Source of the DNA: Myxococcota bacterium
Lineage (GTDB): Bacteria > Myxococcota_A > Polyangia > Polyangiales > Sandaracinaceae
Direction of reading: 5' to 3'
Length of the DNA stretch: 64,000 nt
Assembly (NCBI GenBank): GCA_036149055.1
Contig: JAYZQJ010000248.1
Coordinates: forward strand, 16,853-80,852
Shown: positions 44,006-50,981 of the stretch, in pieces
Position numbering within the stretch: position 1 is the stretch's first letter
Layout of the letters: each line of letters starts with the position of its first letter
The notes under the pieces: model-generated
The model's input: the letters and a program-made list of their open reading frames with translations, nothing else
The model's database searches: none
What the model was told of the DNA's origin: nothing
Program-made: the position numbers and the translations under genes

Positions 44006-45271
44006 ATGACCGACACCACCCGCGCGGGCGAGATCGACGACAGCGACGTCTCGCAGCTCATCTACGACTGGAACTCCAAGCGCTACCGCGGCCCGGTGAT
44101 CGCCAACCGCGCGTTCGAGCTGCACGACGAGACGCTCCGCGACGGCATCCAGAACCCGTCGGTGGTGGACCCCGAGATCGACGACAAGCTCGAGATCCTG
44201 CACATGCTCGAGGAGATCGGCGTCGACACCATCGACGTGGGCCTCCCCGGCGCCGGTCAGCGCGCGTTCAACGACGTGCTCCGGCTCTGCCGCGAGATCG
44301 CGGACCAGAAGATGAGCATCCGCCCGACCTGCGCCGGCCGCACCCTGGTGCAGGACATCGCGCCGATGGTCGAGGTGAGCCAGCGCGCCGGGATCCCGAT
44401 CGAGGTGATGACCTTCATCGGCTCCTCGCCGATCCGCGGGCTGGCCGAGGACTGGTCGGTGGAGCTCATCCGCCGCCGCTCGGTCGAGGCCATCGCGTTC
44501 GGCGTGAAGGAGGGTCTGCCGGTCAACTACGTCACCGAGGACACCACCCGCTCGCGCCCCGACGTGCTCTGGGAGCTGTTCCGGGCCGCCATCGACGCCG
44601 GCGCGTCGCGCCTGACCCTCTGCGACACCGTGGGCCACGTGACCCCCGACGGCGTGCGCAACCTGGTCCAGTTCACCCGCCACCTCATCGACGCCTCCGG
44701 GGCCGAGGTGGGCATCGACTGGCACGGCCACAACGACCGCGGCCTCGGCGTGGTGAACGCGATCTGGGCGCTCGAGTACGGCGCGCACCGCACGCACGGC
44801 ACGATCCTCGGCATCGGCGAGCGGGTGGGCAACGCGTCGCTCGACCAGATCCTCGTGAACCTGAAGCTGCTCGGCGTGCTCGGCGACCGCGACCTGACGA
44901 AGCTCTCCGCCCTCTGCGAGAAGGTCTCGACCGCGACCGAGTTCCCGATCCCGATCAGCTACCCGGTGTTCGGCGAGGACGCCTTCCGCACCGGCACCGG
45001 CGTGCACGCGGCCGCGATCATCAAGGCGATGGAGAAGGGCGACGCCTTCCTCGCCGACCACGTCTACTCGGGCGTGCCGGCGGGTGACTTCGGCCGCGAG
45101 CAGGAGATCGGCATCGGCCCGATGAGCGGCATCAGCAACGTCCGCTACTGGTGCCGCAAGCGCGACATCGAGCCCACCGAGGCGATCACGAAGGCGATCC
45201 TCGGCAAGGCCAAGGAGAGCAAGCGCCTGATGACCGACGCGGAGATCCACGCGGTCATCGAGCAGAGCTGA
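44006..45271 (+). CDS. LeuA-family (DRE-TIM) alpha-keto-acid acetyl-CoA synthase, short form
   Basis: DETLRDGIQ, CDTVG, HGHNDRG, GIGERVGNA, GVHAAA; no C-terminal regulatory domain. Confidence 0.85.
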   Translation: MTDTTRAGEIDDSDVSQLIYDWNSKRYRGPVIANRAFELHDETLRDGIQNPSVVDPEIDDKLEILHMLEEIGVDTIDVGLPGAGQRAFNDVLRLCREIADQKMSIRPTCAGRTLVQDIAPMVEVSQRAGIPIEVMTFIGSSPIRGLAEDWSVELIRRRSVEAIAFGVKEGLPVNYVTEDTTRSRPDVLWELFRAAIDAGASRLTLCDTVGHVTPDGVRNLVQFTRHLIDASGAEVGIDWHGHNDRGLGVVNAIWALEYGAHRTHGTILGIGERVGNASLDQILVNLKLLGVLGDRDLTKLSALCEKVSTATEFPIPISYPVFGEDAFRTGTGVHAAAIIKAMEKGDAFLADHVYSGVPAGDFGREQEIGIGPMSGISNVRYWCRKRDIEPTEAITKAILGKAKESKRLMTDAEIHAVIEQS

Positions 45272-45680
45272 GCGGGCGCGCGACGGGCCAGTGGCTCAGC
45301 GCGATCAGCGCCCCGTCCGGATCGCGGACGTAGAGGGAGAAGTCGGACTCGCGCTCGACCGGGTACCCGGCGGCCTCGAGCCGGCTCCTCCAGCGTTCCC
45401 TGTCGAGTGAGTCGATCTGCATCGCGAGGCAGTGCAAGCCGGCCTCGTGATCGTGGCGTGTGGCCTCACCGGGCGCTTCCTCCACGGCCAGGAATGCACG
45501 CTCCTCGTCGGCGGAGTCACCGAACGCGAGCCACACCGATCGGAGGCTCCCATCTTCGCGGTGCCACCGGCGCAGCTCCTCGAGCCCGAGCGCGTCGCGA
45601 TAGAATTCCAGCGCTCCTGGGAGATGTTGTACGCACACGGCGACGTGGTGCACGCGACCGGCCCGCATCGTTCCGCTCAT
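45255..45680 (-). CDS. VOC/glyoxalase-family protein
   Basis: VHHVAV, FYRDALGL, GLHCLA, LYVRDPDG. Confidence 0.85.
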   Translation of the reverse strand: MSGTMRAGRVHHVAVCVQHLPGALEFYRDALGLEELRRWHREDGSLRSVWLAFGDSADEERAFLAVEEAPGEATRHDHEAGLHCLAMQIDSLDRERWRSRLEAAGYPVERESDFSLYVRDPDGALIALSHWPVARPLSSAR

Positions 45681-45694
45681 GGGCTCCTTTCGGA

Positions 45695-45714
45695 TCTGCA
45701 AGCCGTCGCTTTCA
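45695..45714 (+). promoter_or_regulatory. Candidate upstream activator site, copy 1
   Basis: TCTGCAAG-CCGT-CGCTTTCA matches TCTGAAAG-AGGG-CGCTTTCA at 46427. Confidence 0.55.
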
Positions 45715-45784: not shown

Positions 45785-45801
45785 TTGGCACGCAGCTCGC
45801 T
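45785..45801 (+). promoter_or_regulatory. Sigma54 -24/-12 promoter of candidate sRNA 1
   Basis: TTGGCACGCAGCTCGCT: GG-N10-GC. Confidence 0.75.
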
Positions 45802-45811
45802 AAGGTTCGGG

Positions 45812-45926
45812 GCAGGCATGACACCACGGCGGGCGATTGCCCCCCCGACCGCCTGCCAAAGTCATGTCGGTCTTTCACGACCCCGGCGCAACTCCCCCCC
45901 AGCGCCGGGGTCGTGTGCTAATTTTT
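45812..45926 (+). ncRNA. Candidate sigma54-dependent sRNA, copy 1 (two C-rich-loop hairpins)
   Basis: Stem GGCATGAC/GTCATGTC with inner GGCGGGCG/CGCCTGCC and loop ATTGCCCCCCCGAC; stem CACGACCCCGGCGC/GCGCCGGGGTCGTG with loop AACTCCCCCCCA; then ATTTTT. Confidence 0.7.
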
Positions 45927-45928
45927 GC

Positions 45929-46080
45929 TGGAGGGTTTGGGGCAAACCCTCCCCCCATGGGGCGGAGCGCCCATGGGGCCCCCCTCCCGACTCCGTCGGC
46001 GCCTCGCGCGCTTCGCGCGCTGGCGCCGCGTACCCCGGCGACGGGGCGCCGGGGGCCCTGCGGCTCGCGCTCGCGCTGTG
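45929..46080. repeat. Dispersed palindromic (REP/MITE-like) element
   Basis: GGAGGGTTTG..CAAACCCTCC hairpin similar to 63911 onward; GGGGCGCCGGGGGCCCTGCGGCTCGCGCTCGCGCTG occurs inverted at ~60744-60779. Confidence 0.65.
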
Positions 46081-46358
46081 CGCTCGCTGGCCGCCTTTCA
46101 CCGGTTCGCCACCCCGCTCGGCGGCTCCCGCTCGCGCTTTGCGCTCGCTGGCCGCCTCTCACCGATTCGCCACGGCTGCCGCCCGCGGCTCCCGCTCGCG
46201 CTTTGCGCTCGCTGGCCGCCTCTCACCGATTCGCCACGGCTGCCGCCGGCGGCTCCCGCTCGCGCTTTGCGCTCGCTGGCCGCCTCTCACCGATTCGCCA
46301 CGGCTGCCGCCGGCGGCTCCCCGCTTCGCGCTCTGCGCTCGCTCGCCGCTTCACCGAG
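46060..46358. repeat. About five tandem 61-64-bp repeats
   Basis: GCGGCTCCCGCTCGCGCTTTGCGCTCGCTGGCCGCCTCTCACCGATTCGCCACGGCTGCCGCC; units start at 46060, 46121, 46185, 46249 and 46313. Confidence 0.9.
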
Positions 46359-46422
46359 CTGGCGTGCTGGGGGTCTCCAGGGCGGGATCTCCAGGGCGGG
46401 ATCACTGGTGGGAGATTGACTT

Positions 46423-46453
46423 CCATTCTGAAAGAGGGCGCTTTCAAGAATGG
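46423..46453 (+). promoter_or_regulatory. Candidate upstream activator site, copy 2 (inverted repeat)
   Basis: CCATTCTGAAAG-AGGGCG-CTTTCAAGAATGG, about 80-110 nt upstream of the predicted +1. Confidence 0.6.
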
Positions 46454-46507
46454 AGGAGATGATGGGTGTCATGGGGGCGGATCGGCTTCGATCAGGCGAT
46501 CTCGGGG

Positions 46508-46524
46508 TTGGCACGGGTGTCGCT
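46508..46524 (+). promoter_or_regulatory. Sigma54 -24/-12 promoter of candidate sRNA 2
   Basis: TTGGCACGGGTGTCGCT: GG-N10-GC. Confidence 0.75.
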
Positions 46525-46534
46525 ACTAGGGTGA

Positions 46535-46646
46535 GTGACATGGCGAATCGGCTGGCGACGTAGCCCCCCCCTGTTGCTCGCCCGCCATGTCTATCTTCGG
46601 CGGCCTCGGTGCGACTCCCCCCCAACGCATCGAGGCCGCCTTCTTT
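46535..46646 (+). ncRNA. Candidate sigma54-dependent sRNA, copy 2 (two C-rich-loop hairpins)
   Basis: Stem GACATGGCG/CGCCATGTC with loop TAGCCCCCCCC; stem GGCGGCCTCGGTGCG/CGCATCGAGGCCGCC with loop ACTCCCCCCCAA; then TTCTTT. Confidence 0.7.
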
Positions 46647-46705: not shown

Positions 46706-47815
46706 GTGGGTTTGGGGTCTCGAACCGTTCTGATCTTGCTCGGGCTCGGGCTGGCCGGCTGCGGGGGCGAGGTGGTGGAGGAGTCGGCGCCGGCCGCGCC
46801 TCCGGTGCGCCTGGACGACGTGGTGTCGACCGAGCGGGTGCCGCACGCGGCGGGCACGGCCGAGCTGGAGCCGCTCCGGCGCGCGACGCTGTCGGTGGAG
46901 GCGCCCGGGCGGGTGGTGGCCATCGACATGGAGCGCGGGCAGCGGGTGGAGGCGGGCGACGTCCTGGTCCGCCTCGACGTGGGGCGCACCGCGGTGGCCA
47001 CGGCGGCGGCGGCCGCGAACGTGACCCAGGCCGAGGCCGCGCTCGCTCAGGCGGAGCGGGAGCGGGGGCTGGCCGAGCGGCTGGTGGAGAGCGGGAGCGC
47101 GTCGGCGCGCTCGCTCGATCAGGCGCGAGACGCGCAGTCGCTGGCCGAGGCCGCGCTCGACGCGGCGCGCGCGCAGGTGCGCCTCTCACGGCGGGGGCTG
47201 ACCGAGGCGGTGCTCCGGGCGCCGTTCGGAGGCGCGGTGATCGAGCGCCGGGTGGAGCTCGGCGAGTACGTGATGCCGGGCTCGCCGATCGGCGAGCTGA
47301 TGGACGCGAGCCACCTCCGGGCCGAGGTCCTGCTGGATCCCCGGGAGGCGCTCGACGTGACCCCCGGCGCGAGCGTGCGGGCCCAGGTCTTCGCGCGCCC
47401 CGGCGAGGTGTTCGCCGGCGAGGTGCTCCGGGTGGGCGAGGCGGTCGACCGGCGGACCCGACGGCTGCCGGTGGAGGTCGAGATCCGCGATCCCGAGGGT
47501 CGGCTGCGCCCGGGCCTGGTCGCGCGCTTCGAGGTCGCGACCGGGGCGCCGCGCGAGGTGCTGACGGTCGACGCGGACGCCGCGTTCGAGCGCTTCGAGG
47601 TGCTGCAGGTCTACGTCGTCGACGGCGAAGGCGTGGCCCACCGACGCGCGGTCTCGCTCGGCCCGGTCGAGGACGCGCGGGCCGAGGTGCTCGAGGGGCT
47701 CGAGGCGGGCGACCGGGTCGTCGTCGAGGGCCAGGACCGGGTGCTCGACGGGGAGGCGGTGACGGTGGTCGAGCCGGACGCGCCCAGCGAGCCGAGGGCC
47801 GCGCGTGTCGACTGA
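46706..47815 (+). CDS. RND efflux periplasmic adaptor (MFP) lipoprotein
   Basis: Lipobox LAGC; GQRVEAGDVLVRLD, LRAPFGG, LRPGL, GLEAGDRVVVEG. Confidence 0.9.
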   Translation: MGLGSRTVLILLGLGLAGCGGEVVEESAPAAPPVRLDDVVSTERVPHAAGTAELEPLRRATLSVEAPGRVVAIDMERGQRVEAGDVLVRLDVGRTAVATAAAAANVTQAEAALAQAERERGLAERLVESGSASARSLDQARDAQSLAEAALDAARAQVRLSRRGLTEAVLRAPFGGAVIERRVELGEYVMPGSPIGELMDASHLRAEVLLDPREALDVTPGASVRAQVFARPGEVFAGEVLRVGEAVDRRTRRLPVEVEIRDPEGRLRPGLVARFEVATGAPREVLTVDADAAFERFEVLQVYVVDGEGVAHRRAVSLGPVEDARAEVLEGLEAGDRVVVEGQDRVLDGEAVTVVEPDAPSEPRAARVD

Positions 47816-50800
47816 GCCGGAGGAGGAGCCTCCGTCCCTCGCGCGGTTCAGCGTGCGTCAGCCGGTGCTCGTGAACCTCGTCGCCATCGCGATGATGGCC
47901 ACCGGCGCGCTCGTGCTCTCCCAGATGACGCGCGAGGTCTACCCGATCGTGCCGATCGGCGCGGCGAGCGTGGTGACGCTGATGCCCGGGGCGTCCGCCG
48001 AGGAGGTGGAGCAGCTCGTCACCGCGCCGATCGAGGACGAGCTCGCCGGCGTCGAGGACGTCGACGTCATGACGAGCACCTCGAGCGACGGCATGAGCTT
48101 CATCTGGGTGGAGCTCGAGCCGACGGTCGAGGACGTCGGCCGCAAGGTGCTGGAGATCACCAACGAGGTGAACCGGGCCGCCGGCACGCTGCCCGCGGGC
48201 GCCGAGTCCCCGGTGGTGCGCGAGGCCGCCGTCCGCCCGCCGATGATGGCGGTGACCGTGCGCGGGAACGTGCCCGAGCGGGTGCTGCGCGCGGTGGCCC
48301 GCGAGCTCGAGGAGCGCATGGAGCGCCTCAGCGGGGTGAGCGAGGCGCGGCCGACCGGGATCCGGGAGCGCGAGATCCACGTCGACGTCGACCCGGACCG
48401 CCTGAGCGCCTACGACCTGCCGCTCTCGAACGTGGCCAGCGCGCTCTCGATGCGCGGGGCCAACGTGCCCGCCGGGCAGATGGAGACCGGGCGCCGGAGC
48501 CGCATCGTGCGCGGCATGGCCCAGGCCGCGACCGCGGCGCAGATCGGCGAGGTCGTGGTCCGCCCGGATCCCGACGGCGGCGCGGTGCGGGTGCGCGACG
48601 TCGCCGACGTGGAGGAGGGCTTCGAGCGGGCGCGCACCCTCTCGCGGGTCGACGGCGAGCCGGCCATCGTCTTCGTCATCCAGAAGGAGGACGGCGCCGA
48701 CGCGCTCCGGGTCGCGGCCGCGATCCACGCGCTGCTCGACGAGACGCGCGAGACCCTGCCGCCGGGGGTGCAGCTCAGCGTGTTCGGCGACACCTCGCAC
48801 TACGTCCGCGCCAACCTGAACACCCTCTACGCCAACGCGGCGATGGGCCTCGCGCTGGTGCTCGCGATCCTCTGGATGTTCGTGGGCTTCCGCAACGGGC
48901 TGATGGCCGCGCTCGGCATCCCGGTCGCCATCGCCGGCGGGGTGGTCGTGATGCACTCGCTCGGCATCACGATCAACATGCTCTCGCTGCTCGCGCTGAT
49001 CCTCTCGCTCGGGATCATCGTCGACGACGCGATCATCATCATCGAGAACGTCTTCCGGCACATCGAGGAGGGCATGCCGCGGCGGCGCGCCGCGATCGTG
49101 GGCTCGATGGAGGTGTTCTGGCCGGTCGTCGCCTCCACCGCGACGACCTGCTCGGCGTTCCTGCCGCTGCTCCTCATGACGGGGGTGCTCGGGGAGTTCT
49201 TCGCGATCATCCCCAAGGTGATCGTCGCCGCGCTCCTGGCGTCGCTGATCGAGGCGTTCTTCATCCTGCCGAGCCACATGGCCGACTTCGGCGCGACCGA
49301 GGCGTCGAAGAAGAGCGAGCAGGGCGGGCGGAGCGGCCGCCTCGCCGCGTGGGTCGAGCGGACCTTCACCCGCGTGCTGAAGGCCGCGCTCCGGCGGCGC
49401 GTGCTGACCGTGCTCGGCACCTACGCGATCTGCGTCGGGCTCATCGCCGCCGCGGTGGCGCTCAAGAGCGTGACCCTCTTCACCGAGGGCGACGTGGAGG
49501 CCTTCGACGTGCGGGTGCGCATGCCGACCGACGCCGCGCCGGAGGAGACCGACCGGGTGCTGGCCGAGATCGAGCGGCGCATCCTCGAGCTCGGCGACGA
49601 CGACGTCGACGCGGTGATCGGCACCCGCGGCTACTCCCGGACCCGCACCTGGAACGTGACCGGCGACCACGTCGGCTCGGTCAGCGTCTACATGGTCCCG
49701 CGGCACGAGCGGAGCAGCCAGGAGGCGGGCACGCAGCTGATGGAGCGCGTCGCGCACCGCTTCGACGACATCGTCGGGCCGGCGAACCTCGAGGTCGTGA
49801 AGCTCGAGGACGGCCCCCCGACCGGCGCGCCGGTGGCGGTGCGGGTCATGGGTGAGGACCTCGATCACCTGGCCGAGATCAGCGAGCGTGTGCAAGCGGA
49901 GCTGCGCCAGGTGCGGGGCGTGCGCGACGTCGGCGACGACCACCAGCTCGGCAAGGGCGAGCTGCGCGTGACCGTCGACGAGGAGCGCGCGGCGCTGCAC
50001 GGCCTGACCACCGCCGCGGTGACCGCCTGGCTGGGGACCGCGTTCGGCGCGACCCCGGTGGCCACGACCCGCGAGGGCGAGGAGGAGGTCGACGTGGTCG
50101 TGCGGGTCCGCGAGGACGCGCGCGGCGACCCCGAGCGGCTCGGGCAGCTGACCCTGGTGACCCCGAGCGGGAGCACGGTGGCCCTCCGCGAGGTGGCCCG
50201 GATCGAGATGGGGCGCGGGCTCTCCGCCATCGAGCGGCGCGACCGGCGGCGCACCATCACCGTGACCGCGGAGCTGGTCGAGGGCTCGGGCGTGCAGAGC
50301 GCGGACGCGAACGCCGAGCTGGCGAGGCGCATCGCGCCGCTGATGGCCGCCAACCCCGACATCCGCTTCGAGCTCGGCGGCGAGTACGAGGAGACCCAGG
50401 AGTCGCTCGACTCGCTCTTCCTGGCGTTCCTGATCGCCGCGCTCCTCATCTACACGATCCTGGCCACCCAGTTCCGCTCGTTCCTGCAGCCGCTGGTGGT
50501 GATGACCGCCATCCCGCTCTCGCTCATCGGGGTGAGCATCGGCTTCCTGGTCAGCGGGGAGGCGGTCGGCCTGATCGGCCTCATCGGCGTGGTCGGGCTC
50601 GCCGGCATCGTGGTGAACGACTCGCTGGTGCTCGTCGACTTCATCAACAAGCGGCGCGAGGCGGGCACCCCGATCGACGAGGCCATCGTCGAGGCGGCGC
50701 GCCTCCGGCTCCGCCCCATCTTCCTCACCAGCGTGACCACCATCGCCGGCCTCTTCCCGCTCGCGCTCGGGGTCGGGGGCCGCTCGGAGCTGCTCGCCCC

Positions 50801-50981
50801 GATGGCCACCGCGATCAGCTGGGGCCTGACCTTCTCGACCGTGCTGATCCTGGTGATCGTGCCTTGCCTCTATCGAAGCGTGGACGGGCTCGGCGGTGGC
50901 TTGTCGCGACTGTTCGGTCCGCTTTTCCGCGTGGCCACCGGCAGGCGCCGAGTCGCCCCCGAGCCCGCGCCCGCCGAGTAG
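47805..50981 (+). CDS. RND efflux permease (AcrB/AcrD/AcrF family)
   Basis: 1058 aa; GIIVDDAIIIIEN, RLRPIFLTS; about 12 TM helices. Confidence 0.95.
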   Translation: MSTEPEEEPPSLARFSVRQPVLVNLVAIAMMATGALVLSQMTREVYPIVPIGAASVVTLMPGASAEEVEQLVTAPIEDELAGVEDVDVMTSTSSDGMSFIWVELEPTVEDVGRKVLEITNEVNRAAGTLPAGAESPVVREAAVRPPMMAVTVRGNVPERVLRAVARELEERMERLSGVSEARPTGIREREIHVDVDPDRLSAYDLPLSNVASALSMRGANVPAGQMETGRRSRIVRGMAQAATAAQIGEVVVRPDPDGGAVRVRDVADVEEGFERARTLSRVDGEPAIVFVIQKEDGADALRVAAAIHALLDETRETLPPGVQLSVFGDTSHYVRANLNTLYANAAMGLALVLAILWMFVGFRNGLMAALGIPVAIAGGVVVMHSLGITINMLSLLALILSLGIIVDDAIIIIENVFRHIEEGMPRRRAAIVGSMEVFWPVVASTATTCSAFLPLLLMTGVLGEFFAIIPKVIVAALLASLIEAFFILPSHMADFGATEASKKSEQGGRSGRLAAWVERTFTRVLKAALRRRVLTVLGTYAICVGLIAAAVALKSVTLFTEGDVEAFDVRVRMPTDAAPEETDRVLAEIERRILELGDDDVDAVIGTRGYSRTRTWNVTGDHVGSVSVYMVPRHERSSQEAGTQLMERVAHRFDDIVGPANLEVVKLEDGPPTGAPVAVRVMGEDLDHLAEISERVQAELRQVRGVRDVGDDHQLGKGELRVTVDEERAALHGLTTAAVTAWLGTAFGATPVATTREGEEEVDVVVRVREDARGDPERLGQLTLVTPSGSTVALREVARIEMGRGLSAIERRDRRRTITVTAELVEGSGVQSADANAELARRIAPLMAANPDIRFELGGEYEETQESLDSLFLAFLIAALLIYTILATQFRSFLQPLVVMTAIPLSLIGVSIGFLVSGEAVGLIGLIGVVGLAGIVVNDSLVLVDFINKRREAGTPIDEAIVEAARLRLRPIFLTSVTTIAGLFPLALGVGGRSELLAPMATAISWGLTFSTVLILVIVPCLYRSVDGLGGGLSRLFGPLFRVATGRRRVAPEPAPAE

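Follow-up and report, generated by a model that had tools for sequence, protein, structure and literature searches.

In the genome of a Myxococcota bacterium of the family Sandaracinaceae (GenBank assembly GCA_036149055.1), the gap between a VOC/glyoxalase-family gene and the genes of an RND pump holds two similar units, each with a sigma54-type promoter box followed by two hairpins with C-rich loops. Does this gap encode small RNAs (sRNAs) and, if so, to which regulatory system do they belong? The window that we analysed is the whole stretch of 64,000 nucleotides (nt) from contig JAYZQJ010000248.1 (positions 16,853 to 80,852, forward strand), and the units lie within its positions 45,785 to 46,646. 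We conclude that they are almost certainly real non-coding RNA genes, and that shared ancestry and a shared regulator with Pxr, an RNA that is itself processed into long and short forms and blocks fruiting-body development in Myxococcus (PMC10217877), are probable. Taken as a whole, the explanation that we favor and hold to be reasonably likely is that of paired Pxr-lineage sRNA genes, driven by the activator PxrR and sigma54, whose C-rich loops would repress G-run mRNAs independently of Hfq.

Two tandem units with sigma54-type promoters

The two units lie 723 nt apart, and each has the box TGGCACG-N4-TCGCT. Next comes a two-tier hairpin whose loop is C7 or C8; a short linker joins it to a hairpin of 14-15 bp bearing an ACUC7A loop, and a U-rich tail ends the unit, as follows:

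45688-45714, + strand: candidate enhancer (upstream activator site) of copy 1, a 14-bp imperfect palindrome TTTCGGATCTGCAA with an extra TTTCA half-site
45786-45800, + strand: sigma54 -24/-12 box of copy 1, GG-N10-GC
45812-45926, + strand: sRNA copy 1, ~115 nt, ends predicted
45815-45868: hairpin 1 of copy 1, two-tier, C7 loop at 45840-45846
45876-45915: hairpin 2 of copy 1, 14 bp, C7 at 45894-45900, preceded by the linker
45922-45926: U5 tail of copy 1
46420-46455, + strand: candidate enhancer of copy 2, two degenerate units with 2 mismatches each, 22 nt apart
46509-46523, + strand: sigma54 -24/-12 box of copy 2, GG-N10-GC
46535-46646, + strand: sRNA copy 2, ~112 nt, ends predicted, tail TTCTTT
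46537-46591: hairpin 1 of copy 2, C8 at 46564-46571
46599-46640: hairpin 2 of copy 2, 15 bp, C7 at 46617-46623

Both copies had been described in a first-pass annotation made from the sequence, and every feature that it placed in the gap was found in position. Standard sigma54 spacing puts the predicted +1 at 45812 and 46535, 2-3 nt 5' of hairpin 1, in agreement with the proposed start at the hairpin base, and the proposed 14-15-bp hairpin 2 proved to be a perfect 14-bp stem in copy 1 and a 15-bp stem with one G-U pair in copy 2. The layout of hairpins and U tract stood and could be refined in two points: an internal loop splits the stem of hairpin 1 into two tiers, and in copy 1 the U5 begins 6 nt past the hairpin 2 stem. 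The upstream enhancers and an insert between the copies that resembles repetitive extragenic palindromic (REP) elements are additions to that description. The rpoN gene was found in the source genome (9.9 Mb, 73% GC).

Folding, the first check that had been suggested, gave -60.9 kcal/mol for copy 1 (z -6.45) and -60.2 kcal/mol for copy 2 (z -7.40); none of 200 shuffles folded as well as either copy, and the minus strands of copies 1 and 2 folded less well (z -3.2 and -5.2). The centroid and minimum-energy structures coincide, with no alternative (antiterminator) fold seen, and the C runs are unpaired with a probability of 0.8-1.0, one base excepted. The copies share 74 identical positions over 115/112 nt. 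The two-hairpin structure with single-stranded C7-C8 loops is supported by covariation.

A structured RNA family in related genomes

A pattern of two C runs matched 20 of 41 related genomes, and its reversed-pattern control none of the 41, so that the layout exceeds chance. Three covariance models were built, all promoter-free and Pxr-free, one of which (R3) comprises 46 sequences; family members are 83-121 nt long, with alignment indels of any size. In the 46-member alignment, 93.2% of the pairing cells pair compared with 67.2% in shuffles, covariation is 0.61 compared with 0.175, and double-sided changes occur in 28/28 pairs (slid controls pair in 29-48%), which bears out the proposed covariation of a structured RNA; on the debit side, the alignment was fitted to the model and its members are related. 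The 46 members were first picked by a pattern demanding two C runs, so loop conservation among them is circular.

R3 members occur in 14 of 27 family genomes and in 49 of 151 order genomes, the latter count being a floor with only 24 candidates scored per genome; both tallies include one unpublished genome (G023), of which the other results are independent. All 17 examined model matches that the earlier pattern had missed (those returned as loci, with G023 and a single-hairpin match in G015 left out) have a TGGCA-N8-GC box at the expected distance, at -26 to -33 in eight and at -73 to -89 in the nine where an extra 5' hairpin precedes. The covariance model and these promoters support the view that the units belong to an unannotated sigma54-type sRNA family. 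The family is modular: single-hairpin forms exist in Sorangium (4 loci, with boxes canonical in two and weaker in two) and elsewhere, three-hairpin forms exist in other families of the order, and the C-loop RNAs carry one to three loops each and number 1-5 per genome. The initial picture of an always two-looped family confined to this lineage is thus wrong.

The source genome has 13 strict sigma54 boxes, four with the two-C-run layout and a fifth with one C-loop hairpin; its two-hairpin copies lie on contigs C248 (twice), C182 and C259, and a single-hairpin gene with box and enhancer lies on C262. A strict pattern of enhancer, promoter and C6 matched 12 of 401 phylum genomes (control 1), nine of them in the order, and it misses the source genome itself, being too strict for prevalence; its three matches outside the order are one clear twin-loop RNA (L326) and two doubtful ones. 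A loose promoter and C7 pattern, used only to choose candidates for inspection, did no better than its control in 13 genomes around the Pxr-bearing genome G186. A strong single hairpin with a CCCCUCCCCCCC loop and a U tail at G000:C223:13403-13452 (G000 being the source genome) resembles the family hairpin 1, with no clear sigma54 box upstream.

The recommended Rfam comparison, Pxr included, brought no family to threshold in the window region, and neither there nor at 10 non-Pxr loci nor, at E up to 1, at 16 further loci was there a gathering-level match. The window RNAs are not members of the Pxr family RF01812, whose gathering threshold is 80 bits and in which true pxr loci (from metagenomes) score 114-129 bits. 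Over 151 phylum genomes the RF01812 model gave three weak matches, none above the cut-off and one a tRNA-like fold plus hairpin, in a sample that is evidently without a pxr carrier and hence uninformative.

A shared upstream palindrome and a PxrR orthologue

A palindrome, TTKCR-N4-TGMAA, lies mostly 75-100 nt 5' of the box and is often repeated 21-22 nt further on. At no more than one mismatch and within 150 nt, it is found upstream of 44/48 myxobacterial family genes, 8/8 pxr genes and 6/6 intermediate forms, and of 0/6 look-alike RNAs from Coriobacteriia. The background is 0.3% in random windows, 1.7% in AT-richer windows and 2.3% in shuffles, and 6 of 111 TGGCAY boxes in the source genome have the motif. 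It was picked out by eye in the very upstream regions where it was then counted, a point against it, and therefore the weight lies on the difference from the controls and not on the count itself. The copy 1 site, whose motif is the one 5' of all eight pxr genes, is a strict match and nearly identical to the pxr site, and the two copy 2 units together form a long inverted repeat that is kept in G001, a genome of the same genus. Because the copy 2 site is a conserved two-mismatch version and the copy 1 site is pxr-like, the site sequences suggest that the two copies may respond differently.

The best match of PxrR in the source genome is a protein encoded on contig C118 (G000:C118:11938-13287; 53%, 462 bits, next 340), and in the reverse direction the best match of this protein in G186 is encoded immediately 5' of pxr (475 bits, next 374). 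The helix-turn-helix of the C118 orthologue retains TTLWRKMKR, and 131 of 151 order genomes have exactly one PxrR-type match. G186 itself (L119), a 9-Mb genome recorded as Comamonas sp., carries a 120-bit Pxr next to pxrR and is probably a myxobacterium under a wrong label.

At the syntenic pxrK-pxrR locus of genome G295 there are two tandem twin-C-loop RNAs, flanked by PxrR and PxrK homologues (63%, 49%) and by two Proton_antipo_M genes (52%, 55%), which are the NADH-dehydrogenase-subunit genes that flank pxr; one of these RNAs scores 53 bits on a Pxr-free model. A single-hairpin form follows the pxrK-pxrR pair in G297, and 5 of 29 order loci (crudely parsed from the best-scoring 30 of 131) have a hairpin with a C-rich loop after the pxrR orthologue. 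An early synteny search with pxrR over 79 loci gave only generic activator matches of 31-33%. In the source genome, the pxrR orthologue is followed at G000:C118:13298-13445 (L301) by an enhancer, a sigma54-like box, a short C-rich leader and a single receiver-domain gene, and in several order genomes this receiver gene likewise comes after pxrR, in some cases with a full C7 hairpin in between; the place may be what is left of a pxr position and may add a member to the regulon. Two protein-coding genes with a perfect enhancer palindrome 5' of a sigma54 box (G000:C30:3680 and C182:34486) are candidate members of the same regulon.

Sequence kinship with Pxr

At the true pxr loci (L034-L043, L176), the Rfam Pxr model starts 13 nt after the sigma54-predicted +1, and the 5' bases left out of it pair with the stretch drawn there as SL2, so that two hairpins result. 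With these 13 nt included, Pxr folds as a two-tier hairpin 1 plus a terminator hairpin; three stem-loops (SL1-SL3) are given for Pxr, whereas the window RNAs are predicted to fold into two, as is Pxr with this 5' extension. Two Cystobacter Pxr paralogues have been published as two-stem RNAs (PMC5568312).

Copy 2 shares 72 identities with Pxr over 112/120 nt, and its last 13 nt are the Pxr 3' end. We compared stems by shuffling base pairs with the loops and structure fixed, under a loose and a strict null: Pxr against the window copies beat the structure-preserving shuffles in 8/8 comparisons (z 2.2-3.7, strict null), with the drawback that the Pxr sequences are so closely related that they amount to roughly one observation. 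Resemblance to the Pxr stems was found for 22/46 family members (loose null) and for 0 or 1 of 20 Coriobacteriia RNAs, and a Pxr-like hairpin 1 sequence in 6/6 intermediate single-hairpin forms at p<=0.05. The terminator base GCGGCC/GGCCGC, a motif picked after the data were seen, occurs in Pxr and 16/46 members compared with 4/649 other terminator-like hairpins in the source genome. The models put all 10-11 pxr loci at the right coordinates despite scores of 18-26 bits. Overall, the stem sequences, which are not independent of one another, give a modest signal for kinship with Pxr. The window RNAs probably descend, as a paralogous branch, from the ancestral gene of Pxr and belong to its regulon; the original wording, 'Pxr-like or analogous', was right as far as it went and can be sharpened by the PxrR orthology and the enhancer to probably homologous and of the same regulon.

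Predicted mode of action

A PxrR orthologue would bind the palindromic upstream site and switch on sigma54 transcription of each ~110-nt RNA separately. Each RNA is predicted to display its C7-C8 loops on two long hairpins, the second of which would double as the terminator. The loops may pair with G-rich stretches of at least five G (for loop 2 also GGGAG) in the ribosome-binding sites of many mRNAs or close to them and, by the precedent of Pxr and of the actinobacterial 6C RNA, would block translation without Hfq; having two of them might add avidity or give two sites.

Loop-only duplexes have energies of -5 to -6 kcal/mol with GGAGG, -12 to -13 kcal/mol with G5 and -15 to -16 kcal/mol with G6, and the duplex of loop 2 with GGGGGGAGU reaches -19.6 kcal/mol. 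The loops fit G runs far better than GGAGG, and therefore the anti-Shine-Dalgarno (anti-SD) loops proposed at the outset would hold for a G-rich subset of ribosome-binding sites and not for the common GGAGG. From these energies and the counts of G5 in start windows we infer repression of a subset of G-run mRNAs, and pairing of loop and mRNA appears rather likely as the mode of action. One C-to-A change in the first loop is reported to abolish Pxr function (PMC5684412), a TRIC-seq preprint reports Pxr contacts with mRNAs near the SD sequence in M. xanthus, which lacks Hfq (10.1101/2025.09.11.675593), and 6C RNA is reported to bind mRNAs through its C loops, chaperone-free (PMC6486639). The source genome, which is 96% complete, gave no Hfq match.

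Look-alike RNAs in other bacteria

A scan of named genomes gave at least 120 matches, which after a structure filter and duplicate removal resolved into 23 myxobacterial or deltaproteobacterial loci, 21 actinobacterial loci (mostly Coriobacteriia) and 3 others. The Coriobacteriia/Actinomycetota loci (L045, L048, L064, L074, L082, L114 and 14 more) carry a separate RNA of ~97 nt with a sigma54 box, twin poly-C loops and no Rfam match, which lies directly 5' of a WYL/PafC-type gene pair at 6 examined loci; rpoN is present in 4/4 tested genomes bearing it. These RNAs may be a sigma54-driven 6C-like family and are probably unrelated to that of the window; they score 23-40 bits on our models, and therefore shape alone is no proof of kinship. 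At five loci with Desulfovibrionaceae titles (L054, L122, L160, L063, L144), a sigma54 box is followed by several poly-C hairpins.

Weighing the alternatives

Several observations weigh against the explanation given above. Pxr scores 18-26 bits on the Pxr-free models, below the 23-40 bits of the Coriobacteriia RNAs; RF01812 is unmatched in the window region (E up to 10) and in the source genome; and a whole-genome R3 search of G186, in which 150 of 12,660 candidates were scored, missed pxr. No more than 17/46 members resemble the Pxr stems at p<=0.05 when the strict null is used, and under that null 5/20 Coriobacteriia RNAs resemble the window copies. The copy 2 enhancer, with two mismatches, is not counted as a match at the threshold of one. 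The source genome contains 79 Sigma54_activat matches, and two other activators have similar recognition helices. No C-loop hairpin follows pxrR at 24 of the 29 order loci, nor in G187, G294 and G296, and the window copies are not beside pxrR, the orthologue of which lies on another contig with the degenerate C-rich leader and receiver-domain gene at its downstream position. As for targets, GGGGG is only 1.3-1.6-fold enriched near starts (244 of 7735 crudely called genes compared with 155-189), too little to single out a target set, and target prediction on crude gene calls of the source genome picked out 75 genes that have G6 close to the start and share no theme. Parts of the stretch occur in eight RNA runs from two studies, of which four were analysed as contigs: in one run copy 1 lies inside a 611-nt contig of depth 7, copy 2 is partly covered at a depth of about 3, and one contig spans the VOC gene and copy 1 at even, low depth; these contigs give neither ends nor strand and neither support nor refute sRNA transcripts. 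A depth peak at 45872-46114 stems from the multi-copy REP-like repeat.

Independent origin would turn the same RNAs into true sigma54 C-loop sRNAs that converged on Pxr and were recruited to the same or a similar activator. The low model scores for Pxr, the equally shaped Coriobacteriia RNA that has no enhancer and often lies beside WYL/PafC-type genes, and the weak matches of 6C, ar14 and Scr3202 by shape alone speak for such convergence; we judge it unlikely in view of the twin-C-loop RNAs that occupy precisely the pxr locus in G295, the Pxr-like hairpin 1 of all six intermediates, the terminator base common to Pxr and 16 of the 46 members, and the enhancer common to pxr and the family genes. 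Another reading keeps the kinship with Pxr and changes the function, in that the RNAs would titrate a poly-C-binding protein or sponge G-rich RNAs and not directly block translation. Protein-titrating RNAs of the CsrB/RsmZ type carry repeated motifs, and near-homopolymeric loops, one to three per RNA in 1-5 RNAs per genome, would suit this role, as would the weak G-run enrichment at starts and the report (PMC11928866) that of 25 predicted Pxr sites only that of pxrA lies in a differentially expressed gene. The reported Pxr contacts near SD regions (10.1101/2025.09.11.675593), the 6C precedent of direct G-C pairing (PMC6486639) and the strong duplex energies of the loops with G runs make titration or sponging quite improbable.

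Copy 2 might also be the leader or attenuator of the RND operon, as the first-pass annotation had itself cautioned, and the family a set of sigma54-driven leaders. Copy 2 has a weak tail, and 60 nt separate its end from the RND adaptor gene; RND genes lie downstream at 4 homologous loci, and some pxrR loci (L280, L295) have a single C-loop hairpin just 5' of a same-strand receiver-domain gene. Such a cis role is very unlikely because the downstream open reading frame (ORF) is convergent at 21 of 35 homologous loci, a count that rests on a crude ORF caller; the downstream genes are functionally unrelated, no gene follows copy 1, and no antiterminator fold competes with the agreeing centroid and minimum-energy structures. 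A repeat, mobile element or short coding region in place of an RNA gene has scarcely any probability left, being already largely refuted. A true REP-like element does lie between the copies and, in a genome of 73% GC, long ORFs run through the region; set against this are the covariation, the range of lengths (83-121 nt), the alignment indels of every size, and the count of just four two-hairpin copies in 9.9 Mb, each with a promoter. The dozens of promoterless copies that were to mark a REP element are a property of the spacer and not of the sRNA copies.

Genomic neighborhood of the pair

The features around the sRNA pair are as follows:

44006-45271, + strand: HMGL-like (LeuA/homocitrate-synthase-like) enzyme gene, upstream neighbor
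45255-45680, - strand: VOC/glyoxalase-family gene, divergent from copy 1
45929-46352, no strand: REP-like repeat insert between the copies, outside the sRNA genes
46706-47815, + strand: RND adaptor, downstream of copy 2
47805-50981, + strand: AcrB-type RND pump, downstream, after the adaptor

The window locus is conserved among relatives: 8 homologous loci in 6 genera have the HMGL-like gene on the upstream side, and 4 loci have the RND pump on the downstream side. The REP-like insert, present in more than 100 copies in the source genome, fills 420 nt after copy 1 and consists of two multi-copy palindromic units followed by 4-5 tandem units of 61-66 nt; its first 72 nt have 120 genome matches of at least 45 nt and the next 100 nt have 164. 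In G001, only 251 nt separate the pair. The window's contig carries one more partial REP-like copy close to its end. Within 45677-45714, the candidate enhancer of copy 1 overlaps the ribosome-binding region of the divergent VOC gene, and activator binding there might therefore affect VOC expression.

Comparison with known systems

Several paralogous sRNAs under one sigma54 enhancer-binding response regulator are also the design of the Qrr1-5/LuxO-type circuits. Qrr RNAs depend on Hfq, whereas no Hfq was found in the source genome. The C-rich-loop hairpin modules in variable number recall ar14 (RF02344) and Scr3202 (RF02833), which score 30 against a threshold of 58.8 bits and 23.7 against 52 bits, respectively; the ar14 loops are CCUCCUCCC, true anti-SD sequences, in contrast to C7-C8 in the window. 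The 6C RNA (RF01066, Actinobacteria) likewise has two hairpins with loops of at least 6 C and chaperone-independent pairing as its proposed mode (PMC6486639), but matches at 28.3 bits (gathering 47) through hairpin 2 only, belongs to another phylum and, in Corynebacterium, is SigA/SigB-driven (PMC5014011).

The closest likeness is to Pxr (RF01812; PxrK/PxrR = Nla19): a sigma54 box, a +1 located 2-3 nt before a two-tier hairpin 1, a C7 loop, a length of ~110-120 nt, the terminator base GCGGCC/GGCCGC with UUCUUU (copy 2), an upstream palindrome as at pxr, a PxrR orthologue in the source genome and tandem paralogues each with its own promoter (for Pxr, PMC5568312). The window RNAs differ from Pxr in their poly-C second loop, which in Pxr is short and mostly U-rich, their shorter linker, their four dispersed copies that do not adjoin pxrR, their scores below any RF01812 threshold and their presence in Polyangiales, outside the suborder of the stated origin of Pxr. 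This origin has been placed in Cystobacterineae (PMC5684412, PMC5568312, PMC11928866, PMC8538405) and described as recent and de novo, with Pxr restricted to that suborder (PMC5568312, PMC11928866, PMC8538405), an account that changes if the RNAs described here are relatives of Pxr. Our literature search, with subscription papers beyond reach, found no such RNAs described in Polyangiales and no PxrR binding-site sequence; what is added here is the enhancer common with pxr, the orthology of PxrR and, at the syntenic pxr locus, the presence of twin-loop RNAs.

If the kinship is real, PxrR binding and Pxr target recognition become directly testable, and the comparison supplies candidates for the PxrR site and for the regulon, predicts a 5' extension for Pxr and offers natural variants with one, two and three loops. 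With the odds slightly in its favor, we further propose that Pxr may be, instead of a recent de novo product of Cystobacterineae, a derived member of an ancient modular myxobacterial system in which PxrR, acting at TTKCR-N4-TGMAA, would drive one to five poly-C-loop sRNAs per genome, each with one to three hairpins and small-genome lineages included, that would repress mRNAs through a G-run code at the ribosome-binding site and with no Hfq, and that the developmental gate of Myxococcus would redeploy an older nutrient-state circuit. If the kinship holds, high-GC bacteria would have, besides 6C, a second large family of C-loop regulators that work independently of Hfq.

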